From: Phycisphaerales bacterium
GTDB lineage: Bacteria; Planctomycetota; Phycisphaerae; SM23-33; FEN-1343
Direction of reading: 5' to 3'
Assembly (NCBI GenBank): GCA_003171335.1
Contig: PMYD01000025.1
Span: 2,682 to 66,681, forward strand
DNA length: 64,000 nucleotides
In this document: one piece after another, positions 3,816-55,369 of the stretch
Numbering within the stretch: position 1 is the first letter of the stretch
Layout: each line of letters opens with the position of its first letter
Notes under the pieces: model-generated
What the model saw: the letters and a program-made list of their open reading frames with translations, nothing else
Database searches by the model: none
Told to the model about the DNA's origin: nothing
Translations under genes and position numbers: made by a program

Positions 3816-6800
3816 TTACAGCCGCACCGCCAGCGGCGATGCCCCCTCCAGGATATCCAGGGGCCCGGAAGCGGGCCCAGCCGCATCGGCGCTGCTGTCC
3901 GGCGAATCGCTCAGTCCCTGATTCATCGCCGCCGGGGCGCCCATGGCGAAGACCACCGGGGAAACAGGGGCTGCCGTCGCGGTGGGGGGCGCGAGTATGG
4001 AGAGAGCCGGTTTTGGAGGCTCGGCGAGCAGCGCCGGGGCCGGGGCGATGCGGGTCAAGGCGGCGGCCTGCGGCGGATAGGCCGCAAGCATGGGTGCAAC
4101 TTGGCCTATAACCGGCTGCTCCGATGCGGAGGGAATATTCTGCACGGCCGGCGAGTCGGGCAGAAGCGTGACGGTCTGCACGCTGGAGGGGGCCAGCGGG
4201 TGGTAGTTGGTTTGCCAGATCAGGAAATCGGCGCCGTTGACCATGCTATCGCCGTTGGCATCGCCCTGCGACCAGGAGGCGCCGCTGAGCGTGGGATAGT
4301 TCTGCTGCCAGAGGAGGAAATCGTGGCCGGTCACATCGCCGGAGAGATCAAAATCGCCGGGCGTGGTCTTCAGAATCGTCCCAATGAGATAATCGCGGTC
4401 GGCGGCATCGACGCAGCCATCCCCGTTCAGGTCGTATTGGGGATCGGTGCTGCCGGCGCGAATCGCGGCCGAAAGCGCGTCGATGTCGGCGGCGTTTACT
4501 ATCATGTCCCTATTGATATCCCCCGGGATCACCGGCCCGTGGAATCTCCGGGCCAAAATGAGCGATTGACCGCCGAGGGGCACGTACTGCCGCCAGGCGA
4601 GGGTGAAATCCCCATCGGGGGCCATCGCCACCACGGGGTCGTAGGTCTTCTGGTTGTACACGCTGCTCACCAGAAGCACCGCGCCGGTCAGCGGCTGATT
4701 CTGCCCATCCAGCATGACGCCCCAGATGCCAAAGCCGCCGCAGCAGCCGCTGGGCCAGACGACCTCCATATCGCCGCGCGCATCCATCGCCAGATCGGCG
4801 GCGTGGAAGGTGTAATTGGGGGTTTCAACCACCTCCACCGTGCTGCCGGCGGCCTGGCCGAGCCGGTCGTACCGCTGCACGTCGATTTGCGAATCGCCCT
4901 CATCGTGTCGCCACAGGATGGCATAGTTGCCGGCATCATCGACGGCCACGGCCGGGTCCTGGTTCGTACCACTGGCGGGTGGGGCGATGGCGGTGTCCAG
5001 GTCGATCGTGCCATCGGGCTTCAGCCGCCGCACGCCAAAGCCGCCCTGGCCGGTAGAGCCAAGCTGCCAGATGATGGTGATCTCGCCGGCCGCATCGATG
5101 TCCACATCCGGTTTGCACGGCAAATTGGGATCGCCGGCCGGCACGCTGGCCACGAGCAGGCGCGGCCCGGCGGCTGCGCCCAGCGGCGTAAAGAGCTGCG
5201 CGTACACGTCGGTAGCCGCCAGCGCCGAATCGGACTGAACCCACACGGCAACGGAATTTCCGCCCGGACCCGAGGCCAGGGCCACAGCGCCGGAAATGCC
5301 CGGCAGGGAGTAATCCAGCATCTGTATTTCGGCCGGTGTGGCGCCATTGGGCTGAATCGTCGAATGAAAAACGCCCTCCTGGCCGGCGGCATCGAGTGTC
5401 CACAGGAGATGGGTTGTGCCATCATCCGCCACGCCGATGGCCGGGTTGTACTGCCGGGCATCGCCGCCGACCATGACCAGCTCGGGCGCGCCGGCGGTCG
5501 TCGCATCGGGGGACAGATCACGGTAGAGCAATCCGGTGGCGCCGGTGGAGGTGTCGGTTACTGTGCAGCTCAAGCGCCAAAAAGGAGCAAGGCCAAAGCC
5601 GGGTGGCACTTCGATTTTGACGTCGGTGAATTGGTTGGACCCGTCAAGGTGCCAGAGCAGCGTGGCCGGGCCGGTGGGATTGCCGGTGGCATCGAGCTTG
5701 AGGCCGTAAACATCCTGCGTGCCGGACTTCCAAACCGCCAGGGAACCGTCCCATGCTTTAGCGATTGATGGATCATCGACCTCCTGCTGATTGCCGGATG
5801 CCAACGTCGTGGCCGGCTGGTAACCCACGGGGTTGCCTTGGCCGGAATAGCCGACTTGCTGCACGCGAATGCGGGTTGCGCCGGTTGAGGCCTGGTATTC
5901 CCGCCAGATGAGCAAACCCGGACTCGTTGCCTCGATCGCCGCTATTTGCGGTTGTGAGACCGTCCATCCGGTCTCGTAGTCTATATTCGGCATCGGCGAT
6001 GCAAGAGCTGGCATGTCAGAAGCGAGGCCAAGGGTCGGCGTGACACACTGCGCACAAATTTCCGGCCCGGCGGCACCCTGCCGGCACCATGAGAAGAAGA
6101 GCGACGGCCCGCTGGAGACGGACAAGTCCGTCAGCGGTTCATAACTCGCCGGACTGATGATCGCCGTGCCATAAAAGCGTTGCGCAACAACCGAATAGGT
6201 GAATGTGCCCAAGTCATACTGGATCCAAGCGAATAACCTCCCCTGCACATCTTGCGTTACTACAGGATTTGAAATCAAAACCAAAGGTCCCCCGTTGGCT
6301 TGGATAGTCAAGCATCGGCTTGCGCCCAAGCGCGATGCCAGAATATCGCCTTGACCAGTCGGCTCTTGCGAAATGGCGGTCCCATCAGTGGAGACTGACA
6401 TAGTCAGGGGCGAGCTGCCGCCCAATCCGGCGGCAAGGCAAACCGAGGTAGAGGGCAGAATCGCACTACTTCTCCAATAGTAAAGAGAGCTACTGGATGT
6501 TCCTTGTTCCAGCCAGGCAATGGCGTTGTTCGGGTGTTCTGGCACCAAGGAAAGTTGCGACACGGACTCGACCGGCTGCTGGCACATGAACGGCCCTGCC
6601 GGAACCCAGCCCACAGTTTCAAAGTTGTAATCGCTAGTCCAAACATGCTTCTGGCCATTGGCGGTAGCTGTCCATCCCACGGTGACTTCGCCGGTGGATT
6701 GCATGGCAAGGGCCGGCTGCGAAACGGGTGCCTCGGCCACCAGATATTGGGCGCCGAAAACAGCGCCGGAGGTGGCGTAAAGCTGTAGACGAATGCCACC

Positions 6801-7540: not shown

Positions 7541-7606
7541 GAAGAACACAGGCTGAAAGCCTGTGCCACCACCGAAGAACACAGGCTGAAAGCCTGTGCC
7601 ACCACC
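7541..7606. repeat. perfect tandem duplication of a 33-bp unit (GAAGAACACAGGCTGAAAGCCTGTGCCACCACC), each holding the hairpin CACAGGCT-GAA-AGCCTGTG
   Basis: Two identical adjacent copies read directly, about 27 nt upstream of the start codon of the giant secreted protein gene. Part of the GGTGGCACAGGCT..AGCCTGTGCCACC REP-like family. Confidence 0.85.
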
Positions 7607-7715: not shown

Positions 7716-7855
7716 GGTGGCATGCCCTCACGACGAAGGCCGCCTTTGGCGGCCGAGGCGGGTGGGCATGTCTTGCGGATGCGGCACATCTTGTTTCACC
7801 GAACGCCCATGCCCACCCGTCCGGTGCTTGCGCCCCATCCGTGAGGGCATGCCAC
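7716..7855. repeat. nested-palindrome element, copy 1 of 3 (outer IR GGTGGCATGCCCTCACG/CGTGAGGGCATGCCAC; inner IR GGGTGGGCATG/CATGCCCACCC)
   Basis: Read directly. Same architecture recurs at 10217..10358 and 27519..27642, with different loop sequences but the same stems. Confidence 0.85.
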
Positions 7856-7883
7856 ATCCAGACCTGGGGTCGCGATTCTTGTG

Positions 7884-10216: not shown

Positions 10217-10358
10217 GGTGGCATGCCCTCACGGCTGGGGCGAAGCCCCGGACGGGTGGGCATGGGTTTTCCATTTGCGCGAGGTCTTCCTTCTGCGCGG
10301 CAGACATGCCCACCCGCCTTGGCCGCCCAGGCGGCCTGCGGCGTGAGGGCATGCCACC
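10217..10358. repeat. nested-palindrome element, copy 2 of 3
   Basis: GGTGGCATGCCCTCACG..GACGGGTGGGCATG..CATGCCCACCCGCC..CGTGAGGGCATGCCACC. Preceded by a direct repeat GCGTTGTAAGGTGGCATGC x2. Sits between hydF stop and the LysE-type gene start. Confidence 0.85.
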
Positions 10359-18555: not shown

Positions 18556-18972
18556 CTAGCTGTCGTTTGGCGCGCAGGCCTTGTCGCCCAGCAGCCGGGC
18601 GACCTCCGCGCGGATCTGCTCAGCGCGGACGGGTTTATCGAGGATCAGGTCGGCCTTGACCCAGCTCTTGGCGTCTTCATCGTTGGGCACGAACGACAGG
18701 CCCGTGGCGGCGGCGACGGAGGTCAGCAGGATGACCGGCACATCCCCGTGCACGCGCTTGAGGTGGTAGGCCAGCACGAAGCCGCTGTCCATCTGCTCCA
18801 TCATCAGGTCCAGGATGGCCAGGTCGGGCTTTTGGCCTAAGAGCAGCTCCTCGCCCTGGCGCTGGCTGTGGCCGGCCTGCACCTCGTAGCCGTCGGCCTG
18901 GAGCACCAAGGTGAGTTGGGAAACGATGTCTTCGTCATCATCCACAATCAAGATTCTGGGCTTGCTGTTCAT
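18556..18972 (-). CDS. single-domain CheY-like response regulator (receiver only)
   Basis: Verified ATG (complement of 18970-18972): MNSKPRILIVDDDEDIV.. REC hallmarks ..DLAILDLMM.. and ..LLTSV... No output domain. Confidence 0.75.
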   Translation of the reverse strand: MNSKPRILIVDDDEDIVSQLTLVLQADGYEVQAGHSQRQGEELLLGQKPDLAILDLMMEQMDSGFVLAYHLKRVHGDVPVILLTSVAAATGLSFVPNDEDAKSWVKADLILDKPVRAEQIRAEVARLLGDKACAPNDS

Positions 18973-18992
18973 TTTCAAATGTCTCTCAGTTC

Positions 18993-19115
18993 GATTGCAA
19001 ATTGCCAATTGCAAATTGCCAATTAAAAACTCTTCCGCAGGAAGTGCCGCTTGATCGGCGCGGCGCCTCGCCGCAGCTCTTCAATTTGCAATTTGCAATT
19101 GGCAATTGGCAATCC
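18993..19115. repeat. palindromic element with (AATTGCA/AATTGCC) heptamer arms, related to 18430..18551
   Basis: GATTGCAAATTGCCAATTGCAAATTGCCAATT ... CAATTTGCAATTTGCAATTGGCAATTGGCAATCC. Fills the hydA-stop / CheY-start spacer. Confidence 0.8.
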
Positions 19116-20837
19116 TTACAGGGGAACTTCCCGCTTATGGTAGTGCGTGTGCAACAGGTGGTGGCTCTTCTCGCCCAGGGGCTTGCCCAGGAACTCGTCG
19201 TACAGCCGCGTGATCCAGGGGTTGGCGTGACTGACGCGGCGCGGCTCATCGCGGTCGATCTTGTACAGGGCCTGCATGCGCGCCCGCACCGACTCGAGGT
19301 CGGCGCCGATGGGCTGGCCGCCGCCGTTGATGCAGCCGCCGGGGCAGGTCATGATCTCGATGAACTGGAGGTCTTTGCGCCCGGCCCGCAACTGGTCCAA
19401 GAGCTGGCGGGCGTTGCCCAGGCCGCTGGCGACGGCGGCGCCGACGTCCAGCGTGCCGATGGTGGTGCGAAGCTCCTTGATGCCCTTCATGCCGCGCAGC
19501 GGCTGGATCTTCAAATCGCCCATCTCCTGGCCGGTGATCAGGTAGTACGCCGTGCGGACGGCCGCCTCCATGACGCCGCCGGAGGCGCCGAAAATCTTGC
19601 CGGCGGTAGTGCGCTCGCCGAAGGGCGTATCGGCCGCCTCGGCCTCCAGGGCCGCCAGGTTCACGCCGAACATCCGCAGCAACTGGCCCAGCTCGCGGGT
19701 GGTCAGCACGTAGTCCACATCGGGGACGTGGTTGGGCTGCATCTCCGGCCGCGCGCACTCGAACTTCTTGGCCGTGCAGGGCATGATCGACACGCTCACG
19801 ATATTGCCCGGCTCGATGTTCTCGCGCTGGGCGAAGAAGCTCTTGATGATCGCCCCCATCATCTGCTGGGGGCTCTTGCACGTGGAGAGGTTGGGGATGA
19901 ACTCCGGGTAGAACTGCTCCACGAATTTGATCCAGCCGGGCGAGCAACTGGTCATCATGGGCAGCACGCCGCCGGTGGTGACGCGATGCACCAGCTCGCT
20001 GGCCTCTTCCATGATGGTCAGATCGGCGGCAAACGAGGTATCAAAAACGCGGTCAAAGCCCACGCGGCGCAGGGCGGCCACCATCTTGCCGTCCACGTCC
20101 GTGCCGGGCTTTAAGCCGACTTCCTCGGCCAGGCTCACGGAGACCGCCGGGGCATGCTGGGCGATGACCAGCTTGGTCGGGTCGGCCAGGGCCGCCACCA
20201 CGGCGTCGAGGCTGGAGCGCTCGGACAGCGCGCCCGTCGGGCAGACCAGGATGCACTGCCCGCAGTTGATGCAACTGGAGAGGTTGAGCCCGGCGTTAAA
20301 CGCCGTGCCCACGAACGCCCGGCTGCCGCGGGCGATGAAATCCACGGCCGAGACGGTCTGGTATTCCTCGCACATGCGGACGCACCGGCCGCACAGGATG
20401 CACTTGCTCGGGTCGCGCAGGATGGAGGGGCTGGAGACATCCAGCTCACGTTTGCTCTTGGCGCCGCGATACAGCCGCTGGCGCACGCCCAGGTCCATCG
20501 CCAGGTGTTGCAGTTCGCACTTGCCGCCGCGCGGGCAGTACAGGCAGTCGTCGGGGTGGTTGCTCAGGAGCAGTTCCACGATGGTCCGCCGGGCCTCCAG
20601 CACGCGCGGGGTGCGGGTGCGGATCTTCAGCCCTTCGCTCACCGGGCAGGAGCAGGCGGTGACCAGGTTGCCCGTGCCTTCCACCTCGACCACGCACAGC
20701 CGGCAGGCGCCGCTGGGCGCCAGCCCGTCCATGTGGCACAGCGTGGGCACGTGAATGCCCTCGCGCCGCAGCGCCAGCAGAATCGTCTCGCCCGGCTTGG
20801 CCGCAATCTCGCGGCCGTCCGCTAGAAAAGTAGTCAT
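19116..20837 (-). CDS. hydA: [FeFe]-hydrogenase catalytic subunit HydA (M3-type, CpI/bifurcating-like), with an unusual L1 motif
   Basis: Verified ATG (complement of 20835-20837, GAGGAT SD). N-terminal 2Fe-2S ferredoxin-like domain. His-ligated cluster motif HPDDCLYCPRGGKC. Two 4Fe-4S motifs CILCGRCVRMC and CINCGQCILVCP. H-cluster motifs MMTSCSPGW (L1, normally TSCCPxW), MPCTAKKFE (L2), EIMTCPGGCINGGGQP (L3). Confidence 0.9.
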   Translation of the reverse strand: MTTFLADGREIAAKPGETILLALRREGIHVPTLCHMDGLAPSGACRLCVVEVEGTGNLVTACSCPVSEGLKIRTRTPRVLEARRTIVELLLSNHPDDCLYCPRGGKCELQHLAMDLGVRQRLYRGAKSKRELDVSSPSILRDPSKCILCGRCVRMCEEYQTVSAVDFIARGSRAFVGTAFNAGLNLSSCINCGQCILVCPTGALSERSSLDAVVAALADPTKLVIAQHAPAVSVSLAEEVGLKPGTDVDGKMVAALRRVGFDRVFDTSFAADLTIMEEASELVHRVTTGGVLPMMTSCSPGWIKFVEQFYPEFIPNLSTCKSPQQMMGAIIKSFFAQRENIEPGNIVSVSIMPCTAKKFECARPEMQPNHVPDVDYVLTTRELGQLLRMFGVNLAALEAEAADTPFGERTTAGKIFGASGGVMEAAVRTAYYLITGQEMGDLKIQPLRGMKGIKELRTTIGTLDVGAAVASGLGNARQLLDQLRAGRKDLQFIEIMTCPGGCINGGGQPIGADLESVRARMQALYKIDRDEPRRVSHANPWITRLYDEFLGKPLGEKSHHLLHTHYHKREVPL

Positions 20838-20852
20838 GCCATATCCTCGTTA

Positions 20853-20975
20853 CCGTGGCACGGGCGTCTCGCCCGTGAGTCGCACGGGCATCTTGCCCGT
20901 GATCCGGCCGTTTCTTCTCAGTTTCCACGGGCGAGACGCCCGTGGCACTCATGGGCGGGACGCCCATGCTACTCT
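20853..20975. repeat. cluster of four CACGGGCG-NNNN-GCCCGTG family hairpins in the hydB-hydA intergenic spacer
   Basis: CACGGGCGTCTCGCCCGTG, CACGGGCATCTTGCCCGTG, CACGGGCGAGACGCCCGTGGCAC, CATGGGCGGGACGCCCATG, all read directly. A second cluster of the same family is at 38676..38795. Confidence 0.85.
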
Positions 20976-23900
20976 TAATCCGGTTGCGTGAACTCCAGGT
21001 CGCAGCGCAGGCAGCGGCGGGCCTCCTTGACGGCATCCGCCTCGCTGATACACAGCTCGACCTCGGCGAAGGTGCACTTGCGCTGGCCCACGGGCAGCTC
21101 GGGGCACTTGACGCGCTCGACGATTGTCTCCGACTCCTCATCGTCGCCGCCGCCCGCCACGGGCGCCACGTACACCCCCGGCACGATGGCCTTGGGCAGC
21201 ACGCGCATGGCCTTGCCGCGGACGAACCGGTCGATCATGGCCGCCGCTTGCTTGCCGGTGCCCACCGCCGCAATGACGGTGGCCGGCCCGGTCACGGCGT
21301 CGCCGCCGGCGAAGATGCCCGTGCGACTGGTCTGGAAGCTCTCGCCGTTGGTCGCCACCGAGCCCCAGCGCGTAAGCGTCAATTGTTCGAGACCCTCGGT
21401 CTCGGGCTCCTCGCTGATGGCCACGACCAGCGTGTCCAGCTCCAGGTCGAATTCCGAGCCGGCGATCGGCACGGGCCGTTGCCTTCCGGAGGCATCGCGC
21501 TCGCCCAGCTTGTTGCGCTGCAGGCGCAGGCCGGTGAGCTTGCCATCTTTCGTGTGCACGGCCAGCGGGGCGACCAGCTCTTCAAGCTTGACGCCCTCTT
21601 GCAGCCCGGCCTCGACCTCTTCGTGGTAAGCCGGCATCTCCTCGCGCGTGCGGCGGTACAGCACCGTGACGCTGGTGACGCCTTTTTGCCGCAGGGCCAC
21701 GCGGGCGGCATCCATGGCGGAGTTGCCGCCGCCGATCACGCCCACCCGCCCGTGCGCCAGCTCCTGCCCGTGCAGGTTATGGGCCTTGAGGAAGGTCATG
21801 CTCGGGATGACGCCGCGGGCATCCTCGCCGGCTAGATCAAGCTTCTTGGACTTATGAGCGCCCGTGGCCACATAGACCGCGCTAAAACCCTGGGCCAGCA
21901 GGTCGTCCAGGCTGAAATCGCGGCCCAGTGCCGTGTTGTAGCGGATCTCGACGTTGGGATTGGTCAGCGCATCGATCTCCCGCCGCAACAGATCGCGCGG
22001 CAGCCGGTACGCCGGGATGGCGCCCACCAGCATGCCGCCGGGCTTGGCCTCGCGCTCAAAGACGGTCACGCGATGGCCCATCAGCGACAGGCAGTTGGCG
22101 GCCGTGAGGCCCGATGGCCCCGCGCCGATGACGGCGATCTTCGCCGCATTGGCCGCCGCCGGCGCCACCGCGGGCGTACCGACGCCGGGGCTGACGTGGT
22201 CCACGACGAACCGCTTGAGCGTACGCACGGCCACCGACTCACCGCCGGTTGAGCCGGCGCGGCAGGCGTGCTCGCACGGGTGATGGCACACGCGGGCGCA
22301 GGCCGAGGGGAACGGGTTACTCTGCCGGATCACCCGGTAGGCCTCCTCGTATTCGCCGCGGCCGATGTGGGCCACGTACCGCCACACTTCCGTGCCGGCG
22401 GGGCAGGCGTTCTGGCAGGGCGCGCCCACCAGGCTCTTGCACGCCCCGGCGGGGCAGCGGCGCTCGAAGACATGCGCCTCGTATTCCGCGCGGAACCATT
22501 TCAGCGTGCTCAGCACCGGGTTGGCGGCGGTCTGACCTAAGCCGCACAGGCTGGTGGCCTTGATCATCTCGCCCAGCCGCTCCAGGTGCATGATGCCCTG
22601 CACCCGCAGCAGGCTGTCGAAGGGGCTCTCCTGGCGCGGGCTGCGCGTCAACGCCTGGAGGATTTCCAGCATGCGCTTGGTGCCTTCGCGGCAGGGAATG
22701 CACTTGCCGCAGCTCTCCGACTGGATGAACTCCATGAAGAACTTGGCGAAATCGACCATGCAGGTCGCCTGATCAACCACCACCAGGCCCCCCGAACCCA
22801 TGATGGTCCCAAACTTCTTGAGCGCCTCGTAATCGGTCGGAATATCCAGCTCTTTTTCCGGCACGCAGCCGCCGGAGGGCCCGCCGATCTGCACGGCTTT
22901 GCACGCCTTGTTGTTGGGAATGCCGCCGCCGATATCAAACACCACCTGCCGCAGCGTGGTGCCCATGGGCACCTCCACCAGGCCGGTGCGGCGGACCATG
23001 CCCGAGAGGGCGAACACCTTGGTGCCCTTGGAGCTGGCCGTGCCCATGGCGGCGTACCACTGCGGGCCAATGTCAAGAATAAGGGGCAGATTCGCCAGCG
23101 TCTCCACGTTGTTGATGACCGTGGGCTTGCCGAACAGGCCCTTGACCGCCGGGTAGGGCGGCCGCGGCCGCGGCATGCCGCGCCGGCCTTCGATGCTGTG
23201 GATGAGCGCCGTTTCCTCGCCGCACACGAACGCGCCGGCGCCCTGCTTGATGACGATCTCCAGGGAGAAGCCGCTGTCCAGCACGTTCTCGCCGATCAGC
23301 CGGTACTGCCGCGCCTGGGCCATCGCCTGCTGAAGGCGGCGGATGGCCACGGGGTACTCGGCGCGGATGTAGATGTACGCCTTGGACGCGCCGATGGCGT
23401 AGGCCGCGATGAGCATGCCTTCCAGCAGCCGGTGCGGATCGCTCTCGCCCACGGCCCGGTCCATGAACGCGCCGGGGTCGCCCTCGTCGGCGTTGCAGAT
23501 GAGATATTTCTGGTTCGCCTGGGAGGCGCGGGCGAATTTCCACTTCTTGCCAGTGGGGAACCCGCCGCCGCCGCGGCCGCGCAGGCCGCTGGCTTCCACC
23601 TGGTCGCAGACTTCCTCGGGCGTCATCTTGCCCAGCACCTTGGCCACGGCCGAGTAGCCGCCCCAGGCGATGTATTCATCGATGCTTCCCGGGTCCAACA
23701 GGCCGCTGGTGGCCAGCACCACGCGCCGCTGGCGGATGAGGAACGGGTGCTCGTCGAGATAGCGCACCTGGTCCCAGGGCTTTAGCAAGAGCCCTTCCTG
23801 CCGGAACTGGCCCAGCGCCGCGCCCTCGGCGACCTTGGCATCGACCAGCACCGCCTTGAGCACGGCCTCGACCTTGTCGGCCGTGGCATTTCCAAAGCAG

Positions 23901-24259
23901 ATGCGCGTGCGGCCGGGCATCTGCACATCGAGCAGGGGCTCTTCCGAGCACAGGCCGATGCAGCCGACCTCGATCACCTCGGCATCGAGATTGCCCTTGG
24001 CGATGTACTCGCGCACGGCGGCGAGCGTTTTGCCCGCCCCAGCGCCCAGGCCGCACGTGCCGGTGCCGATGAAGATCACCGGCTTGGCCACATCCTGGCG
24101 GCGCAGGGCCGACAGCCGCCCGGCCAGCACATCGGCCCCCGCGCTCTTGGCGGCGGCCAGCGGGCCGGCGGGAATCCAGTCCAAGAGCTCGGGCGAGACC
24201 GGCCGAGCGCCCAGCCAGCAACGATCAAAAGCCACGGCAGCGGTATTAGCATCCGGCAT
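20975..24259 (-). CDS. hydB: hydrogenase NADH-dehydrogenase-like subunit HydB: NuoF (51 kDa, FMN/NAD-binding) fused to a C-terminal GltD-like FAD/NAD(P) oxidoreductase domain
   Basis: Verified ATG (complement of 24257-24259). NuoF hallmarks ..GGGGFPTGKKW.., ..LICNADEGDPGAF... Cys-rich Fe-S motifs. Then a GltD-like region: ..CQNACPAG.., ..KIAVIGAGPSGLTAA.., ..GRVGVIGGGNSAMD... Confidence 0.85.
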   Translation of the reverse strand: MPDANTAAVAFDRCWLGARPVSPELLDWIPAGPLAAAKSAGADVLAGRLSALRRQDVAKPVIFIGTGTCGLGAGAGKTLAAVREYIAKGNLDAEVIEVGCIGLCSEEPLLDVQMPGRTRICFGNATADKVEAVLKAVLVDAKVAEGAALGQFRQEGLLLKPWDQVRYLDEHPFLIRQRRVVLATSGLLDPGSIDEYIAWGGYSAVAKVLGKMTPEEVCDQVEASGLRGRGGGGFPTGKKWKFARASQANQKYLICNADEGDPGAFMDRAVGESDPHRLLEGMLIAAYAIGASKAYIYIRAEYPVAIRRLQQAMAQARQYRLIGENVLDSGFSLEIVIKQGAGAFVCGEETALIHSIEGRRGMPRPRPPYPAVKGLFGKPTVINNVETLANLPLILDIGPQWYAAMGTASSKGTKVFALSGMVRRTGLVEVPMGTTLRQVVFDIGGGIPNNKACKAVQIGGPSGGCVPEKELDIPTDYEALKKFGTIMGSGGLVVVDQATCMVDFAKFFMEFIQSESCGKCIPCREGTKRMLEILQALTRSPRQESPFDSLLRVQGIMHLERLGEMIKATSLCGLGQTAANPVLSTLKWFRAEYEAHVFERRCPAGACKSLVGAPCQNACPAGTEVWRYVAHIGRGEYEEAYRVIRQSNPFPSACARVCHHPCEHACRAGSTGGESVAVRTLKRFVVDHVSPGVGTPAVAPAAANAAKIAVIGAGPSGLTAANCLSLMGHRVTVFEREAKPGGMLVGAIPAYRLPRDLLRREIDALTNPNVEIRYNTALGRDFSLDDLLAQGFSAVYVATGAHKSKKLDLAGEDARGVIPSMTFLKAHNLHGQELAHGRVGVIGGGNSAMDAARVALRQKGVTSVTVLYRRTREEMPAYHEEVEAGLQEGVKLEELVAPLAVHTKDGKLTGLRLQRNKLGERDASGRQRPVPIAGSEFDLELDTLVVAISEEPETEGLEQLTLTRWGSVATNGESFQTSRTGIFAGGDAVTGPATVIAAVGTGKQAAAMIDRFVRGKAMRVLPKAIVPGVYVAPVAGGGDDEESETIVERVKCPELPVGQRKCTFAEVELCISEADAVKEARRCLRCDLEFTQPD

Positions 24260-24737
24260 TGGCGTGTTCCTGATGACGGCAGTCCTGGAGAATTCGTGTG
24301 CACTTGCGCGGCGTGACCTTGGCGTAGAACTCGCCGTTGATGTTCACCACCGGCGAGAGGCCGCAGGCGCCCATGCAGGCCACCACCTCGAGCGAGAAGA
24401 GCCCATCCCGGGTCGTCTGACCGGGACTGATCTTCAGCTCCTTCACCACCGCCTCCAGCACCGACAGCGAGCCTTTCACGTGACAGGCCGTGCCGCGGCA
24501 CACCTGCACGTGATACTTGCCCGGCCGCGTGAAGCGGAACTGGTTGTAAAACGTGGCGACGCCATAGATCTTGCTCGTGGGCAAGTTGAGGTGCTTGCCC
24601 ACCCGCATGATGACATCCTTGGAAAGGTACCCGTGCGCGGTCTGGATCTCCTGGAGAATGGGGATGAGCGTCTCACGCCCCGCCCCGGGGTGCCGCGCGA
24701 GAATCGGTTCAATGTCCGGCTCTACCATCGTGGCCAT
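24246..24737 (-). CDS. hydC: hydrogenase NuoE-like [2Fe-2S] thioredoxin-fold subunit HydC
   Basis: MATMVEPDIEPILARHPG.. from ATG (complement of 24735-24737, GGAAGG SD). NuoE motifs ..VQVCRGTACHVKG.. and ..EVVACMGACGLSPVV... Overlaps the hydB start by 14 nt. The ORF-track extension to 25139 is not credible. Confidence 0.8.
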   Translation of the reverse strand: MATMVEPDIEPILARHPGAGRETLIPILQEIQTAHGYLSKDVIMRVGKHLNLPTSKIYGVATFYNQFRFTRPGKYHVQVCRGTACHVKGSLSVLEAVVKELKISPGQTTRDGLFSLEVVACMGACGLSPVVNINGEFYAKVTPRKCTRILQDCRHQEHANAGC

Positions 24738-24760
24738 CCTTCCGCTGACTTTGGTACCTG

Positions 24761-24815
24761 AAAAAAACCGGCCTTCTGGAGGAGCGTTTTCGCATCGCTC
24801 CTCGCAGCCGGCCGG
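24761..24815 (-). terminator. intrinsic-terminator-like hairpin plus U7 tract on the minus strand, ~24 nt upstream of the hydC start codon
   Basis: Minus-strand RNA: CCGGCUGCGAGGAGCG-AUGCGAAAA-CGCUCCUCCAGAAGGCCGG, immediately followed by UUUUUUU (plus-strand A7 at 24761-24767). Confidence 0.5.
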
Positions 24816-24840
24816 CGGGCACGGCTGGGCCGGTTGGTGG

Positions 24841-24894
24841 CCCAGGCTTTCAGCCTGTGGCCTAAGTTTGGTGGCACAGGCTTTTAGCCTGTGG
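24841..24894. repeat. two REP-like hairpins (CCCAGGCT-TTC-AGCCTGTGG and GGTGGCACAGGCT-TTT-AGCCTGTGG)
   Basis: Read directly. Same family as 7541..7606, 16287..16350 and 52106..52129. Confidence 0.8.
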
Positions 24895-24986
24895 CCGAAC
24901 CTGTTCCGGCTCGCTTCATCATCGGTCGTTCGGCGTTGCAGCTTGTGAACCAGGCAACGCCCCAGCGTTGTTAAATCGCAAACGCT

Positions 24987-25002
24987 GTGAAAGCTTTCAC
25001 AA
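24987..25002. promoter_or_regulatory. perfect CRP/FNR-family-type palindrome TGTGA-AAGCTT-TCACA about 250 bp upstream of hydC
   Basis: TGTGAAAGCTTTCACA read directly, within the only low-GC stretch of the hydCBA upstream region (..TTAAATCGCAAACGC TGTGAAAGCTTTCACA ACCTTTATATGCCACC..). Confidence 0.45.
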
Positions 25003-25139
25003 CCTTTATATGCCACCGGGGCCAGGACGTCAAGCATCTTTTTGCGTGATTCGGACGGCATTGCCGGGCGGCAGGGAGGGTCAGAATATTGTAAGTTACT
25101 TAAGGAAAACATGTTACGTATTTTGGCGCGGGAATTCAA

Positions 25140-25660
25140 CTGAGGAATTTCCTCAGTTGGCGTTCCGGCAAGAAGCTTCTCAGATCAGGAATTTCCGATG
25201 TGACTCCAAACGGTTCGGAGTCGCGCTGGGCTCCAACTGGAGAATTTCTCCAGTCGACTCCGACATTGTCGGAGTCGCGCCCCCCTCAGGTCTGGGATTT
25301 CCGGATGCGACTCCAAAAGATTTGGGGTCGGGCGGCCGTCCAAGTGGAGAACTTCTCCAGTCGACTCCGACATTGTCGGAGTCGCGCCCCCGTCACGCCT
25401 GGAATTCCCGGAAGCGACTCCAATCGGTTCGGAGTCGCGCTGGGGTCAACTGTGGTTTTCCGCAGTCAACTCCGAAAATTTCGGAGTTGAGCTGTGTTCC
25501 GGCGGTCATGGCAGCAATCAGTTCATGCAGAGCATGAACTGAATGAAGATCAACTCCGAGAATTCGGATTTGAGTTGGGCCTGGCAGCCAATCAGTTCGT
25601 TACGGGAATGAACTGAAGGGGAGATCGACTCCGGAAATTTCCTGGTTGCGCCCCGCGCTT
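25140..25660. repeat. ~0.5 kb non-coding array of imperfect hairpin-forming repeats
   Basis: Units include CAACTGAGGAATTTCCTCAGTTG; CCAACTGGAGAATTTCTCCAGTCGACTCCGACATTGTCGGAGTCGCGCCCCC (x2); GACTCCAAACGGTTCGGAGTCGCGCTGGG (x2); CAACTCCGAAAATTTCGGAGTTGA; CAGTTCATGCAGAGCATGAACTGA. All read directly. Confidence 0.8.
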
Positions 25661-25667
25661 GGGGGCG

Positions 25668-27413
25668 TCAAGGCGTTTTCTGGTACACGTATACCGCCTG
25701 CGTCCGGGGGTCGTAGTCTTTGAACGGGCCGAAGCTGTGCGTTTCCAGTTCCGGCCGGCTCTGGTCGAGCCAGACCGTATCCAGCCGCTGGACCAACCGG
25801 TACTGGTAGCGGGTGGGTCCATTGAGACCCTGGTGCGGCCGGGAGAAGAAATCCATGTACTGCTTCAGCTCGGGCTGGGCGCCGAAGGCGATGAGCCAGT
25901 CCGGGAAGTTTTCCCCGCCCTGGAGCGGGGCGTGAAGCTGGCGGATCTTCTGCGCGGGCAGGTGTGTGTTTTCATTCAGCAGGCAGCCCATGCGGACACG
26001 ATCGCCCTGGTAGAACATCAGCGGGTAGTTGCAGAAGTCGGGGATGGCGAGTACCACATCATCGCGCTGCGCGTGGAGTTCCAGGAAGTCGCAGGCCTTC
26101 GAATACGACGTGGGGTAGGGGTGGGAAATCTCTTTAACATACGCGGGCAGGAGCCAGGCGACCTTGCTCGAGGGCAGGCCGGCCGTCAGCGCCGTGGTGC
26201 ACACGGCCAGAGCCAGCAGGGCGCCGGCGGCCAGGCGGCCCCAGAGCCGGTGCAGGCCGTGGAGCATGCCCAGCACCGCGCCGCAGAAACCGGCGAAAAA
26301 CGGGGCGGCGGGAATGAGGTACCGCACATCGGCGGTGTCGATGCCCTTCACCAGCGGCTGATAGGAGGCCGCCGACAGCAGAACCACGTACAGCAGGCCC
26401 AATGTGGCCCACTGTACCGCGGGCCGCACCAATGTGGCAGGGCCGCCCTCGGCTGTGCCGACTGGCCGCCGGCGGCGCAGGATAAGAATCAGCACCAGGC
26501 CCAGCAGGGCCAGCATCCAGGGCAGATACGTCTGGAAGTTCAGGCCCAGCAGGTTGCGCCACAGCAGGATGCCGTGGTGGGTGAGCCAGGGGATCTGGTC
26601 GGGCACCACATCGGGCCGCCGCCAGGCGTGATACACCAGCGTGTAGGGCGCCGTCCCCGCCGCCGCCAGTGCGGCCGCCGCCGCCGGCTTCCACAACTGC
26701 CGTAGCGGCCAGCTATGCCGGTGGAAGATCAGGTGATACGCCGCCAGGGCCACGGCGAAGACCGCCAGCAGGTAGTTGGCGTAAAAGAGCAGCGCCGTCA
26801 GCACGCCCAAAAGCAGGAAATACCGCAGCCGCCCGCGGTCAAGGCAGCGCCGGTACGCCCAGAACATGGCCACCGGCAGCAGCGCCGCCAGGGCGTAGTA
26901 GCGGCATTGGCGGATATTCAGCAGGTACGCCGGCGACAGCGCCAGAAGCGCCAGCGCGTACAGGCCGGCCGGCCCGGTGGGCAGTTCCCGCCGCACCAGC
27001 CGCCAGAACACGCCTAACGCCGCGAGGCCCGCTAAGAGAAACGGCAGCCGCACGGCGAAGGTCGATTTGCCCAGCAGGGCCATGGAGCCGGCGGCCACGT
27101 AAAAATCCAGCGGCGAGTTGATCGGCCGCAGGTTGTCATCCAGCAGCGCGCCGTTGCGGAAGGCCAGCAAATTGCGGCCGTCCCAGCCGGTCAAGTGACC
27201 GGTCTTCAGCAGGTTCGAGGCGATGATGCCCACCAGGGACTCATCATCCCACAGGTACGTGTGGTCCAGCCCCACCCCCCCCAGCACGGCGGCGGCGGCA
27301 ATGAGCCCCACGGCCAGCCGCCACGGGCGCGGACCTTGCGCCGGTGGGGGGGATGATTTAGCAGTAGCAGTAGCAGTAGTGCTCACGACCTGGGGACTGG
27401 CTTTTGCCATCAT
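25668..27413 (-). CDS. GT39/GT83-like (ArnT/PMT-type) polytopic membrane glycosyltransferase
   Basis: Start MMAKASPQ.. at the complement of 27411-27413. Many TM segments. ..HTYLWDDESLVG.. fits the DE-type loop-1 motif of PMT/ArnT-like enzymes. A (GCAGTA)3 repeat encodes the TATATA stretch near the N-terminus. Confidence 0.55.
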   Translation of the reverse strand: MMAKASPQVVSTTATATAKSSPPPAQGPRPWRLAVGLIAAAAVLGGVGLDHTYLWDDESLVGIIASNLLKTGHLTGWDGRNLLAFRNGALLDDNLRPINSPLDFYVAAGSMALLGKSTFAVRLPFLLAGLAALGVFWRLVRRELPTGPAGLYALALLALSPAYLLNIRQCRYYALAALLPVAMFWAYRRCLDRGRLRYFLLLGVLTALLFYANYLLAVFAVALAAYHLIFHRHSWPLRQLWKPAAAAALAAAGTAPYTLVYHAWRRPDVVPDQIPWLTHHGILLWRNLLGLNFQTYLPWMLALLGLVLILILRRRRPVGTAEGGPATLVRPAVQWATLGLLYVVLLSAASYQPLVKGIDTADVRYLIPAAPFFAGFCGAVLGMLHGLHRLWGRLAAGALLALAVCTTALTAGLPSSKVAWLLPAYVKEISHPYPTSYSKACDFLELHAQRDDVVLAIPDFCNYPLMFYQGDRVRMGCLLNENTHLPAQKIRQLHAPLQGGENFPDWLIAFGAQPELKQYMDFFSRPHQGLNGPTRYQYRLVQRLDTVWLDQSRPELETHSFGPFKDYDPRTQAVYVYQKTP

Positions 27414-27518: not shown

Positions 27519-27642
27519 GGTGGCATGCCCTCACGCCGCCGGCCGCCGGGGGCGGCCAAGGTGGGTGGGCATGTCTGCCCGCAAAGAAAAAACCCATGCC
27601 CACCCGTCCGGTGCTTCGCCCCGTCCGCGAGGGCATGCCACC
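27519..27642. repeat. nested-palindrome element, copy 3 of 3
   Basis: GGTGGCATGCCCTCACG..GGTGGGTGGGCATG..CATGCCCACCCGTCCGGTGCTTCGCCCCGTCCGCGAGGGCATGCCACC. Sits in the divergent spacer between the GT39-like gene and the HEAT-repeat gene. Confidence 0.85.
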
Positions 27643-36072: not shown

Positions 36073-36890
36073 GGTTTGGCTCCTCGCCATAAGCGTTCTG
36101 GGTGAACCGATATCCTCGCGGCGCCGCATCCTGCGCGCCGGCGGTCACATTCAATCTCGTGCTGGCGGCCGGCATGGCCGGGCCAGCGGCCTGCTGGACA
36201 CGATAAACATCGCGCGCCGCACATGCCTCGGCATGCGCCGGTGCTACAACATCTCGACCCGCCGGCCGGCGGCGCTGCGTCGGCGTCAGCGGCTGGGCCG
36301 TCATTTCTCGCCGTTCCCGCGCGCGTTTGCGGCCCGCGCCGTACCCGCCGGCCCGCTTAGCGCCTAAAATCGCCTCGTGCAGCGGACTTGGGCCCACATG
36401 CACCAGCGGAATGGCCGCTCTGGAGCGGGACAGGGCTTCGACCAGTTCGTTTGCTTCGTTGGCTGCCGTGCCGTTGGCCGTAACGACAGCCTGCTGAGAG
36501 CGGAGGTCAGGCTCAACGCCGTCCGAGCCGGCTGCGCTTCTGGCAGTCACCTTCGGCCACGCCCGGGCATACATTCCGCCGGGCCCAACCACGAGCACAG
36601 GCGTCGATTCACTTGCCGTCTTCCAGCCCGCAAGTTTTATGTCTGTTAGCATATGTTAACCTAACATCGGCCGAACGTCAACAAACTCTTCAAAAAAATG
36701 TTTGGGTCGAGCCAAACTCTTTTTTTGGCCCCGTATGCGGCCGAGTCTGCACACGCGGCAGCACTATATCTTGGCTCATCATCGCCGAGGACCACAACAG
36801 GCCGTGGTTGATATCGGCGGTCGTAGCGGCGGCGGACGTAGGGTAATATCCCAACAGCCGCCTAACACATGGTATCGTAAAGAGTTGCTT

Positions 36891-38549: not shown

Positions 38550-38675
38550 AAAAAAAGGATTCAGAAAGGCGAACGTGAAACTTCAAACCAATTCAAATTA
38601 CCAAACGGCGGGCCAAAAGGCGTGCCTTGGCGATGTGTGTTCATTCGGATTTTGAATTCCAGATCTCTAAAAAAG

Positions 38676-38795
38676 TGGCATGGGCGTCTCGCCCATGAGT
38701 CCCACGGGCGTCTCGCCCGTGGCGAAATGGAGAAAACTGCCGGAAGCACGGCCAAGATGGCGTGCGACTCACGGGCGGGACGCCCGTGCCACATG
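38676..38795. repeat. second cluster of CACGGGCG-TCTC-GCCCGTG family hairpins
   Basis: CATGGGCGTCTCGCCCATG, CACGGGCGTCTCGCCCGTGG, CACGGGCGGGACGCCCGTGCCAC. Lies between the alpha/beta-hydrolase stop and the GH3 gene start. Confidence 0.85.
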
Positions 38796-38799
38796 TTAT

Positions 38800-39906
38800 T
38801 CAGGTCCCGTTCTGGACCTGTTGCGGATTTTGAGTTGGCACTTTCGAATCCGCCGCTTCGGCCGGCGCCGGCGAGGTCCGTCCTCGAATGTAAACCTCAT
38901 CCACATCGGTTCCGGCCAGGTGCTTCTCGAAAAAGGCCACGGTCCGCTGCGCGTATTCGTCCGGCACGATGACCACCGACTGGTTGTGCTTGGCGCGGGG
39001 GACGATCCAGACGTATTTCGGGGAGGGCGCCTCCTCGTACAGCAGTTGGGTCTGCTGGGCGGGCACGTAGCTGTCCTGGGCGCCGTGGATGAGCATGATC
39101 GGCCGCGGGGCCATCTTGTTCATGGCCAGCCGCACGGAGGGGTAGCGGCAGCCCATCCGCCGCTGCGCCCGGCAGCGCATGAGCCGGTACAGCAGCCGCC
39201 AGAAGCCCTCGGGGTGGTTTTCGTACGCCACGCGGACGCGGGCGAAGATCTTGGCCCAGCGTTTCATCAGGCTGATGCACACCGAATCGGTGCTGAAGGC
39301 CCCATCGGCCAGCACGGCCTCGACGCTGCTGTCGGTGGCGGCGGCCAGGATGGCCGCACAGCCGCCGCGGCTGATGCCAAAGAGGCCGATGCGGGCCGGT
39401 TCGCCGCGCTGGGTGAGTTCCTGGTGCACGTGGGCGATGGCGCCCATCACATCGCCGGTCTCTTTGTCGGAGGCCCACTGCAGCGGGCGGTACTGCGGCG
39501 GGCAGGAACTTTCGCCGTGGCCGCGGAAGTCGAAAGTGAAGATGTCGAAGCCCGCCTGCATCAGCGGTTTGGTGTAGCGGGCGCAGCTATGCATATCCGA
39601 GCCGAACTCGTGGCAGAAGATAATGACGCCCTTGGACTGCCCGCCGCGCACCCACATGCCGCGCAGGCTTGTGCCGTCGAACGCCCGCAGGCGGACTTCC
39701 TGGCCGCTGACCCGCTCAAAATCCAGTGGGCCCATGGACAAGGGCGGGGGCGTATCCGTGAAGATGTTCAGGCTGATGCGGACATACTTGTCGATGACCA
39801 GGCAGCACCAGATGACCAGGCCGGTGCAGGTCAGGGCGATGGTCAGCGCCGCCCAGTTGCTGGCGATGCGCTCGATCCAGGAAAATGACAAAAATAGCCC
39901 GTCCAT
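38800..39906 (-). CDS. alpha/beta-hydrolase-fold protein with N-terminal membrane anchor
   Basis: Verified ATG (complement of 39904-39906): MDGLFLSFSW.. plus a TM segment. Nucleophile elbow ..GLFGISRGGCAA.. (GxSxG). ..FDFRGHGES... Confidence 0.7.
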   Translation of the reverse strand: MDGLFLSFSWIERIASNWAALTIALTCTGLVIWCCLVIDKYVRISLNIFTDTPPPLSMGPLDFERVSGQEVRLRAFDGTSLRGMWVRGGQSKGVIIFCHEFGSDMHSCARYTKPLMQAGFDIFTFDFRGHGESSCPPQYRPLQWASDKETGDVMGAIAHVHQELTQRGEPARIGLFGISRGGCAAILAAATDSSVEAVLADGAFSTDSVCISLMKRWAKIFARVRVAYENHPEGFWRLLYRLMRCRAQRRMGCRYPSVRLAMNKMAPRPIMLIHGAQDSYVPAQQTQLLYEEAPSPKYVWIVPRAKHNQSVVIVPDEYAQRTVAFFEKHLAGTDVDEVYIRGRTSPAPAEAADSKVPTQNPQQVQNGT

Positions 39907-40100: not shown

Positions 40101-40880
40101 TGCCGGCGCGAATCTTGCGGGAGCCCGCAGGGCGACTGAGGAGTAGCCCCTGGCGCTGGCCCACGCGCAGCGCGGGCCGAGCCTGGGGAGAGAGAGGCCC
40201 ACCAGATCTCCGGAGCCCGCAGGGCGATTGAGCCGCTCATCCCCACATCGTCTCAGGATCAAACGAAATGTGGTGCCGTTTTAAAAACGCCATGAACTCT
40301 TCTTCGTACGTCATCTTGCGGTGATGTTCCGCCTGGCCGGCAATGTACGATTCCACATCCGGTCGAATGGAATCCGCCACCGTGAATGCGGCGTAGCCCT
40401 GTTGCCACTTGAAACGGGATTCGATTTTGAAGGTTCGATTCACCCACCCGGTCGTAAGACTCTTGAGCTTCCCCACCGCCGTCGGAACGCCTATCGGCGG
40501 CCTCAGCGAGAGCAGCGCGTGCAGGTGGTTTTCCGTCCCGCCGAGGGCCAGGGCGCAGCCGAGTTCCTTCTTGGCGATCCCCGCGGCATATTCATACAGG
40601 CGGTGCTGGAGATCCGGCGTGATGAGCGGCCTGCGATCTTTCGTGCTGAAGATGACGTGATAGAGCAGGTGCGTGAACGTGTGACTCATGGAACCTCCCG
40701 TAGAAATTCAAGCGGGAGGTTACCCCGGTCCTTCATGGCGTGTCCATAGAATTGGGGGACTCAATCGCCCTATCGGGCTCTAACCCAATCGGGATACCGG
40801 TTTCCCCAGGCTCGGCCCGCGCTGCGCGTGGGCCAGCGCCAGGGGCTACTCCTCAGTCGCCCTGCGGGCTCACGAAGAAG
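40101..40880 (-). mobile_element. IS200/IS605-family or RAYT-like unit: Y1 (HUH) transposase gene flanked by ~70-bp near-identical inverted repeats containing REP hairpins
   Basis: Left flank 40118-40187 (GAGCCCGCAGGGCGACTGAGGAGTAGCCCCTGGCGCTGGCCCACGCGCAGCGCGGGCCGAGCCTGGGGA) is the reverse complement of the right flank 40794-40866. A second GGAGCCCGCAGGGCGATTGAG copy is at 40205-40228, and a degenerate inverted one near 40755. Confidence 0.7.
40237..40689 (-). CDS. tnpA: IS200/IS605-type Y1 transposase (TnpA / REP-associated tyrosine transposase-like)
   Basis: 150 aa from a verified ATG (complement of 40687-40689): MSHTFTHLLYHVIFSTKDRRPLI... HUH motif in ..ENHLHALLSL... Conserved Tyr region ..KWQQGYAAFTV... 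Confidence 0.75.
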   Translation of the reverse strand: MSHTFTHLLYHVIFSTKDRRPLITPDLQHRLYEYAAGIAKKELGCALALGGTENHLHALLSLRPPIGVPTAVGKLKSLTTGWVNRTFKIESRFKWQQGYAAFTVADSIRPDVESYIAGQAEHHRKMTYEEEFMAFLKRHHISFDPETMWG

Positions 40881-55075: not shown

Positions 55076-55369
55076 AGCACCGAACGATTGAGATGTCATA
55101 TTCAGGCGTCGGCGAGACCAGGATGGCAAGGAAGAAAACCGAAGGCATATTCCTAATATGCTGAGGTTTTTCTGACGCCGCCAGCCGCCGTCGCAGCCAG
55201 CCTGAATGTGACAGATCAAGAGTGAGTTGCTCTAGAGCGGGTTACCGACTCCTGCGATCGAGCCTGCATCGGCGCGATTGACGAGCGGACCGCGGTAGGA
55301 TTTATTGCATAGCGATACTCGTTCAATGGCACGGGTGGCGTTCCTGGACCTCATTTAGGAGTGGCAGAC

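Follow-up and report, generated by a model that had tools for sequence, protein, structure and literature searches.

Background

The balance of H2 and NADH in anaerobes is set by electron-bifurcating [FeFe]-hydrogenases, whose control is known mainly via Rex and, in Firmicutes and Thermotogae, via HydS-linked kinases and phosphatases. Regulation by Rex of operons of the hydABC type is established (PMC5317091, PMC6391272). For the Rex operator we used the consensus TTGTGAANNNNTTCACAA of Ravcheev et al. 2012, in the form quoted by PMC6391272 and PMC5317091. As a comparison for Rex-repressed rex-hydCBA or hydABC operons we took Caldithrix abyssi Cabys_3675-3679, which PMC5317091 describes, within the regulon of Ravcheev et al. 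2012. The hydCBA operon considered here belongs to a stretch of 64 kb, the whole of which was analysed (hereafter the window, or W in comparisons with other loci). It resembles the Rex-repressed operons in having the operator consensus at its promoter and genes of the NuoE, NuoF and HydA types; unlike them, it has no rex in the operon or elsewhere in the 64-kb window, and possesses instead a structured non-coding leader with a predicted terminator.

Concerning this leader, the closest described systems are the attenuators of 5' leaders, such as riboswitch platforms, the T-box and the trp, pyr and bgl leaders. The hydC leader shares with them a GC hairpin flush with a U-tract, located between the promoter and the first start codon, and also, as a prediction, an operon whose expression needs read-through. 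It differs from them in having no Rfam aptamer match, no conserved leader peptide and no clean, exclusive antiterminator, and in a stem that is not kept in the nearest relative. For intrinsic termination the established requirement is a GC stem of 6-8 bp directly before a perfect U7. Elements of this kind are well known and ordinary, and the present instance is a new, testable candidate and not a new principle; a literature search found no paper describing an attenuator in a hydrogenase leader.

Gene context and the start of hydC

The genes of the operon were assigned through Pfam matches and their order, hydC-hydB-hydA, is common to the window, L167 and L170 (L numbers designate the loci fetched for comparison). 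The features on which the following sections rely are:

19116..24728, minus strand: hydCBA operon, downstream of the hairpin described below (Pfam matches)
24728..24246, minus strand: hydC, NuoE-like 2Fe-2S protein (Pfam)
24259..20975, minus strand: hydB (NuoF-like, FMN and 4Fe-4S) fused to a GltD-like module, 1094 aa (Pfam)
20837..19116, minus strand: hydA (Pfam)
24726..24743, minus strand: Shine-Dalgarno GGAAGG (24743..24738) and the hydC AUGs at 24737 and 24728

The probable start of hydC is AUG 24728 rather than AUG 24737, since the gene callers give products of 160 aa in three lineages, since it is the sole AUG in L169 and since it lies 9 nt from GGAAGG. A longer hydC reaching upstream through the hairpin (ORF 24246..25139) was rejected, because homologues and gene calls begin with MVEPD and no conservation at the protein level is seen upstream of it. 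The preceding gene on the minus strand encodes a PMT_2 glycosyltransferase and has its stop at 25668, which leaves a non-coding region of 930 nt.

After hydA are found, in this order, genes for a REC-only protein, a HydS-like hydrogenase-histidine kinase fusion, a REC-kinase, HydG, a lyase and HydF. The first three, at 19014-15063 (minus strand) and directly after hydA, encode signalling proteins: the REC-only protein (19014..18556), a 716-aa HydS-like [FeFe]-hydrogenase joined to HisKA and HATPase domains, which is a putative H2-sensing kinase, and a REC-HisKA-HATPase protein. A DNA-binding output domain is present in none of these three. Concerning HydB (24259-20975, minus strand), the fused module is GltD/NfnB-like and consists of Fer4_20 and Pyr_redox_2; the fusion is shared with L167 and L170 and points to an additional NAD(P)H/FAD site in the hydrogenase.

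A GC-rich hairpin flush with a U7 tract

Upstream of the hydC Shine-Dalgarno sequence, the transcribed strand carries two adjacent features:

24768..24815, minus strand: candidate terminator hairpin, with outer stem CCGGCC/GGCCGG, middle stem CUG/CAG, inner stem GAGGAGCG/CGCUCCUC (24803..24779) and a 9-nt loop
24761..24767, minus strand: U7 tract, flush with the stem base GGCCGG

On the minus strand, 24815..24768 reads CCGGCC-GG-CUG-C-GAGGAGCG-AUGCGAAAA-CGCUCCUC-CAG-AA-GGCCGG and is followed by U7 (24767..24761); the slightly wider segment 24816..24757 reads GCCGGCCGGCUGCGAGGAGCGAUGCGAAAACGCUCCUCCAGAAGGCCGG-UUUUUUU-CAGG. The hairpin is GC-rich and contains 17 bp in three segments, with a folding energy of -32.7 to -32.9 kcal/mol over 49 nt, and U7 begins right after its last base pair, with a gap of 0 nt. 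Intrinsic terminators are recognised by a stable GC-rich stem-loop on the transcribed strand and by an uninterrupted U-rich tract within 0-2 nt of the stem base, and both are found here.

The first-pass annotation, made from the letters alone, had described a GC-rich imperfect hairpin directly before U7, which is indeed seen in the sequence: its fold at -32.9 kcal/mol has a z of -5.67, dinucleotide shuffles averaging -17.2 +/- 2.8 kcal/mol, and none of 200 shuffles was equally stable. The folding of 24737..24830 (minus strand), which that annotation had proposed as a check, also gave a stable structure (-41.6 kcal/mol, z -3.0). Its outer extension, given as CCGGC/GCCGG, exists, although the actual pairing is CCGGCC/GGCCGG (6 bp) with CUG/CAG in addition; and its distance of about 24 nt to the hydC AUG is close to right for AUG 24737 (23 nt) but not for the probable start at 24728, which is 32 nt away.

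To place the structure against the rest of the window, in which G+C is 65%, a custom scan of both strands of the 64 kb was used, searching for a single hairpin with a T-rich tail; a standard terminator scanner had skipped the hairpin because its limit for the loop is 8 nt, against the 9 nt found here. The hairpin with U7 ranks first among the 24 sites obtained, and U7 is one of just 4 runs of seven or more T on both strands of the window. The hairpin is present as a single copy. From this analysis it is evident that the structure is real and statistically exceptional. It is identical across five independent metagenome assemblies of the same species, which are uninformative for conservation precisely because they are identical at the hairpin.

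A predicted promoter and a Rex operator upstream of the hairpin

Further upstream on the same strand we found a predicted promoter and an operator that overlaps its predicted start site:

25005..25033, minus strand: sigma70-like promoter, -35 TTGACG (25033..25028), 17-nt spacer, -10 TATAAA (25010..25005)
24985..25002, palindromic and given without strand: Rex operator TTGTGAAAGCTTTCACAg, identical to the consensus TTGTGAANNNNTTCACAA at 17 of 18 positions

The minus strand from 25033 to 24985 therefore reads TTGACG-17 nt-TATAAA-gg-TTGTGAAAGCTTTCACAg. Transcription is predicted to start at about 24998, within the operator, and the U7 hairpin is located about 235 nt downstream. An 18-bp palindrome of the consensus type overlapping the promoter of a redox or fermentation operon is what characterises a Rex operator, and this is the arrangement observed. 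The match (at most one mismatch) is unique in the window, where 0 are expected, and none was found in 100 shuffles. The promoter does not appear among the calls of the standard scan, its -10 TATAAA having no T at position 6.

Both elements recur in relatives. Among the 170 loci fetched, the operator core TGTGAAAGNTTTCACAGCG is confined to L002, L003, L167, L169 and L170, and in the alignment the -35 and -10 hexamers and their spacing are conserved in L167, L169 and L170 (TTGACA/TAGACT in L170), so that promoter and operator are kept in four lineages (W, L167, L169 and L170). A rex gene was searched for in the 64-kb window by tblastn with the Rex of L170, and none was found (best E 2.2).

Between the Rex operator and hydC neither the promoter scan nor the comparison of hexamers found a promoter-like site. 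A promoter downstream of U7 was considered and rejected, since this stretch has no conserved -10 or -35 and extends for merely 23-32 nt to the start codons; it holds the Shine-Dalgarno sequence only. The hairpin is thus located, as in an attenuator, between the promoter of the operon, here a predicted one, and the first start codon. With the promoter and operator upstream and no promoter downstream of U7, the hairpin would lie inside the leader of a Rex-controlled hydCBA operon, and RNA polymerase would have to read through it.

Anatomy of the leader and alternative folds

The leader is about 260 nt long in the window (236 to about 370 nt across strains, longer where there are more repeat units), and its 266 nt taken as a whole are far more structured than shuffles (z -5.25). 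From the 5' end, its elements are:

24987..24963, minus strand: leader hairpin HP1, CAGCGUU/AACGCUG (fold)
24961..24932, minus strand: leader hairpin HP2, GGCGUUGC/GCAACGCC, with GUUCACAAG in the loop (fold)
24834..24899, minus strand: two tandem 34-nt REP-like hairpin units, ggccacaggcuNaaagccugNgccaccaa... (repeat family D6)
24828..24835, minus strand: AACCGGCC, second possible 5' partner of the 3' arm GGCCGGUU, closing a Y-shaped fold
24805..24827, minus strand: hairpin A, CAGCCG-U-GCC-CGCC-GGC-CGGCUG, -15.0 kcal/mol, overlapping the 5' arm of the simple hairpin

L167 carries both HP1 and HP2 with hardly any change, and in L169 HP1 persists, a single G-C pair having become G-U; GTTCACAA and the HP2-loop GUUCACAAG are invariant in W, L167 and L169. 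The 34-nt hairpin unit ggccacaggctgaaagcctgggccaccaaactta is present in tandem as 2 copies in the window, 5 in L003 (482-650), 6 in L002 (467-665) and at least 3 in L164, numbers that may be partly an assembly artefact, since contigs often break there. At the corresponding position in L167, an unrelated hairpin unit of 33 nt occurs four times.

The 3' arm of the terminator hairpin has two possible partners. When the upstream AACCGGCC is left out of the folded segment, the simple hairpin described above forms. With it, the minimum free energy structure of 24835..24761 (-42.4 kcal/mol) is Y-shaped, a stem AACCGGCC/GGCCGGUU enclosing hairpin A and the inner hairpin. Prefix folds indicate that hairpin A forms first, and it is a competitor of the simple hairpin only and can coexist with the Y-shaped fold. 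Since either fold sets an all-GC stem flush with U7, the geometry of the terminator is robust.

We also evaluated whether the leader contains a recognisable sensor. No aptamer, leader peptide or protein-binding repeat could be recognised in the leaders of W, L167 and L169. The Rfam search, with gathering thresholds on the whole window and permissive ones on the three leaders, gave no family in the leaders; the matches to miRNA, snoRNA and Xoo2 were at chance level and none was common to the leaders. Candidate leader peptides were rejected: the reading frames differ, W having MMKRAGTGSATG*, L167 a different one of 15 codons and L169 one of 2 codons, all without a Shine-Dalgarno sequence, and the GAGGAGCG-AUG within the hairpin, as a start, has a spacer of only 2 nt and is absent from L167. 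The leader was also compared with ANTAR-type targets, which consist of two tandem hairpins with hexanucleotide loops, of which the second overlaps the terminator, and go with an ANTAR response regulator; this candidate was discarded, the loops of hairpin A and of the inner hairpin being of 4 and 9 nt. In the three signalling proteins after hydA there is no ANTAR domain, and their domains are only REC, HisKA, HATPase and hydrogenase.

Comparison with related loci

Protein searches with contig look-ups returned three close relatives of HydC only, with identities of 87% (L167/L168), 80% (L169) and 73% (L170); in genome and metagenome scans with HydC, the relatives among the matches listed were at most 72% identical. 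A further locus with 73% HydC identity, L172, was dropped from the comparison, its context being unrelated.

In L167 and L168 the sequence GAAGGCCGR-U7 (GAAGGCCGA-U7) is conserved. The closing stem, however, is degenerate in both (5 of 8 pairs) and their fold is no better than that of shuffles (z -0.2 and -0.9), so that the conserved element may be the U-tract rather than the terminator. At the aligned place of hairpin A, L167 has the hairpin CUGUGA/UCGCAG, in which the pairing is kept through two double changes with respect to CAGCCG/CGGCUG; L167 and L168 also have another hairpin, AGACCCU/AGGGUCU. RNAalifold applied to W and L167 did not find a shared terminator stem and recovered only part of hairpin A. 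In L169 the leader is short, with the promoter and operator only about 125 nt from hydC and nothing else between; its hairpin is a different one (AGCCUG.../...CAGGCU), with U4 behind it and the AUG 18 nt further on (-13.2 kcal/mol, z -1.8).

Concerning the wider set, terminator-like sites within 400 nt upstream were found in 12 of 157 hydC loci, most of them inside the 3' end of the rex coding sequence. The sole clear non-coding case is L133, an unrelated rex-less locus with 65% HydC identity, where a canonical hairpin with T6 (GTGCGAAGCCGAAGGGTTTCGCAC-G-TTTTTT, at about 370-400) occupies non-coding sequence and is separated from hydC by about 40 nt; this is the second case of a hydC leader that contains a terminator. 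In rex-less loci of other phyla the operator is 32-93 nt from hydC and no terminator is present.

The most common arrangement is another one. In 118 of 163 homologous loci, from many phyla (L004-L163), rex is immediately upstream of hydC on the same strand. In L170 (4299-4992) the promoter and Rex operator precede rex and then hydC, which is consistent with an autoregulated rex-hydCBA operon, and the order rex-hydC is also found in L171 and L173. In the lineage of W, L167 and L169, rex appears to have been lost from the slot before hydC while the operator was kept, the slot now being a non-coding leader. Taken together, the comparison with L167/L168, L169 and the wider loci suggests that the strong terminator is specific to this species, on a scaffold (the two hairpins and GAAGGCCGR-U7) common to the sister species.

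Interpretation of the hairpin

The reading that we favour, with moderate confidence and on the basis of sequence, is that the hairpin with U7 is an intrinsic terminator acting as an attenuator of the hydCBA leader. The GC stem and U7 are what intrinsic termination requires, and they lie between the only plausible promoter and hydC. The recurrence of a hairpin beside a U-run just upstream of hydC in L169 and in L133 supports this reading. Transcription would initiate at the sigma70-type promoter, whose start site is covered by the Rex operator, so that initiation should respond to NADH/NAD+. RNA polymerase would then pass the two conserved hairpins, the tandem REP-like array and the GC-rich stem at U7, 32 nt before the hydC start. 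We infer that termination happens at this place and that read-through may be modulated: a share of the polymerases would stop at U7, releasing a leader RNA of about 235 nt, and the hydrogenase would be expressed from read-through transcripts alone, the hairpin with U7 lowering or gating hydCBA expression on top of the control by Rex.

The first-pass annotation had offered a choice between the end of an upstream transcript, coming from the non-coding region, and an attenuator gating hydCBA. The two can be merged, because with the conserved promoter and Rex operator about 235 nt upstream of the hairpin the "upstream transcript" would be the hydCBA leader itself; the position is the one expected of an attenuator, while a transcript derived from the palindrome array at 25.1-25.7 kb and ending at the hairpin, although possible, found no support. 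The same annotation had suggested searching for an antiterminator pairing with upstream sequence. Hairpin A does overlap the 5' arm of the simple hairpin, but no clean, mutually exclusive pairing was found, since even with hairpin A in place a stem at U7 is closed by the other CCGGCC copy.

Two other explanations have to be weighed against a leader attenuator. The main rival, which we consider unlikely, is that the hairpin is a structural by-product: GC-rich CCGG/GGCC palindromic or REP-like repeats would pair beside a U-tract conserved for another role, for example as a U-rich landing site for the ribosome (S1) or Hfq ahead of the Shine-Dalgarno sequence, and the polymerase would mostly read through, the hairpin at most stabilising the mRNA. 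This would account for GAAGGCCGR-U7 being kept between W and L167 while the terminator stem is not, and it fits the many dispersed hairpin repeats, the MITE-like elements and the Y1 transposase gene that crowd the leader and the nearby intergenic regions; one MITE-like element itself contains a hairpin with T6 in the PMT_2 leader (27637..27585), which indicates that such structures arise here without an obvious role. However, textbook intrinsic termination requires just such an all-GC stem of 6-8 bp against a perfect U7, which the polymerase could hardly ignore; moreover the simple hairpin and the Y-shaped fold both preserve the GC stem at U7, the combination is the extreme among the 24 sites of the whole window, and L169 and L133 independently carry a hairpin with a U-run at the matching relative place. 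It is also conceivable, but quite improbable in our judgement, that the hairpin ends a separate unit, either a stand-alone small RNA controlled by Rex or read-through from PMT_2 and the palindrome array, and that hydCBA is transcribed from another, unrecognised promoter. The promoter rules of this probably planctomycete lineage are indeed poorly known, and PMT_2 (stop 25668) has after it only a hairpin that lacks a U-run; further along that strand, the first strong terminator is the one in the hydC leader. Against such a unit, the 23-32 nt from U7 to the hydC start codons already include the Shine-Dalgarno sequence and have no conserved hexamers; the Rex operator, through which hydCBA is expected to be controlled, lies upstream and not downstream of the hairpin, and its place in relatives is ahead of rex-hydCBA, or 32-93 nt ahead of hydC; and in L169 only about 125 nt, with no other feature, separate the promoter and operator from hydC.

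A different question is the origin of the element, and here a possible, though rather doubtful, answer is compatible with every functional reading: the 3' arm and U7 could be a vestige of a former rex gene, namely of its 3' end, located between the promoter/operator and hydC. The codons concerned would be those for ...S-L-E-K-V-A-F-F-A..., often written GAGAAGGTGGCGTTTTTT in living rex genes. The matching slot is occupied by rex in the 118 of 163 loci mentioned above, with the order promoter/operator-rex-hydC in L170, L171 and L173. The frame through the hairpin reads SDAKTLLQKAGFFQV and, scored with a Rex C-terminal profile (...MSLEKVAYFAR), ranks 2-3 among the roughly 100,000 six-frame positions of the window; at the matching place of their own loci, PKADFFA in L167 ranks 2 of 18,680 and MSLLVTADFR in L169 ranks 3 of 1,643. 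In addition, the rex of L094 ends in ...GAAAAGGTGGCGTTTTTTTCAAG (GCGTTTTTTTC) with a hairpin before it. The matches are short, however, and include the low-complexity FF/T-run, and the lineages of W, L167 and L169 are not independent. Moreover, searching W, L167 and L169 with a DNA profile built from 106 rex 3' ends (nhmmer --max, E up to 100) gave no match at the site, and a full-length Rex HMM found nothing there.

If the leader attenuator works, it would add a checkpoint at the level of elongation to the control of a hydrogenase operon by Rex, in a lineage that is uncultured and probably planctomycete. It would also illustrate how a structured RNA leader can take over the operon slot of a regulator gene, here the slot held by rex in 118 of 163 related loci. 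A more elaborate version, which we regard as highly improbable, would have a second signal read at the terminator: the H2-sensing phosphorelay encoded directly downstream of hydA would set read-through while Rex sets initiation by NADH/NAD+, the 5' hairpins and/or the tandem array would dock an antitermination factor, and the terminator would perhaps have been built from the displaced 3' end of rex.

Other terminators and repeats in the window

Canonical terminators made of a hairpin and U5-6 are found at gene ends, at 38705..38667 (minus strand) after the stop at 38800 and at 55139..55174 (plus strand) after the stop at 55075; the organism uses the design of hairpin and U-tract at ordinary gene ends. 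An intergenic AT-rich element at 36692-36726, A7-hairpin(GTTTGG/CCAAAC)-T7, resembles a bidirectional terminator.

The region from the PMT_2 stop to the hydCBA promoter contains, at 25130-25660, an array of about 10 palindromes with a spacing of 53-54 nt and a super-unit of 107 nt, in which palindromes of the type GACTCCGA-N5-TCGGAGTC alternate with others of the type ACTGGAGAAnTTCTCCAGT; L167 has a different array there (4257-4450). Three MITE-like elements of 125-142 bp, all intergenic, were found at 7716-7856, 10217-10358 and 27519-27642, with terminal inverted repeats GGTGGCATGCCC...GGGCATGCCACC. The hairpin with T6 in the PMT_2 leader (27637..27585, minus strand, -25.8 kcal/mol) belongs to the one at 27.6 kb.

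The 34-nt units of the leader occur twice more at 7546-7605, upstream of a minus-strand gene starting at 7514; for the two places together, 0 are expected by chance. They are short imperfect palindromes, multi-copy and intergenic, as REP/BIME sequences are, and look like REP-type repeats. Comparing them with described systems of REP/BIME repeats and RAYT, the units are alike in being imperfect palindromes in tandem, with a copy number that varies by assembly and with recurrence in the window, and also in the presence of a Y1_Tnp gene at 40.2-40.7 kb; they are unlike in being placed in direct tandem inside a 5' leader and not after genes, and the hairpins flanking the Y1 gene are of another type, while the terminator hairpin is single-copy. 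The Y1 gene is an IS200-like transposase gene (40689..40237, minus strand; Pfam Y1_Tnp, 1e-20) in the region 40120-40870. It is flanked by inverted repeats of about 70 nt with GGAGCCCGCAGGGCGAyTGAG hairpins, unlike the hairpins of the hydC leader, and together with them it may represent a RAYT/REP system.
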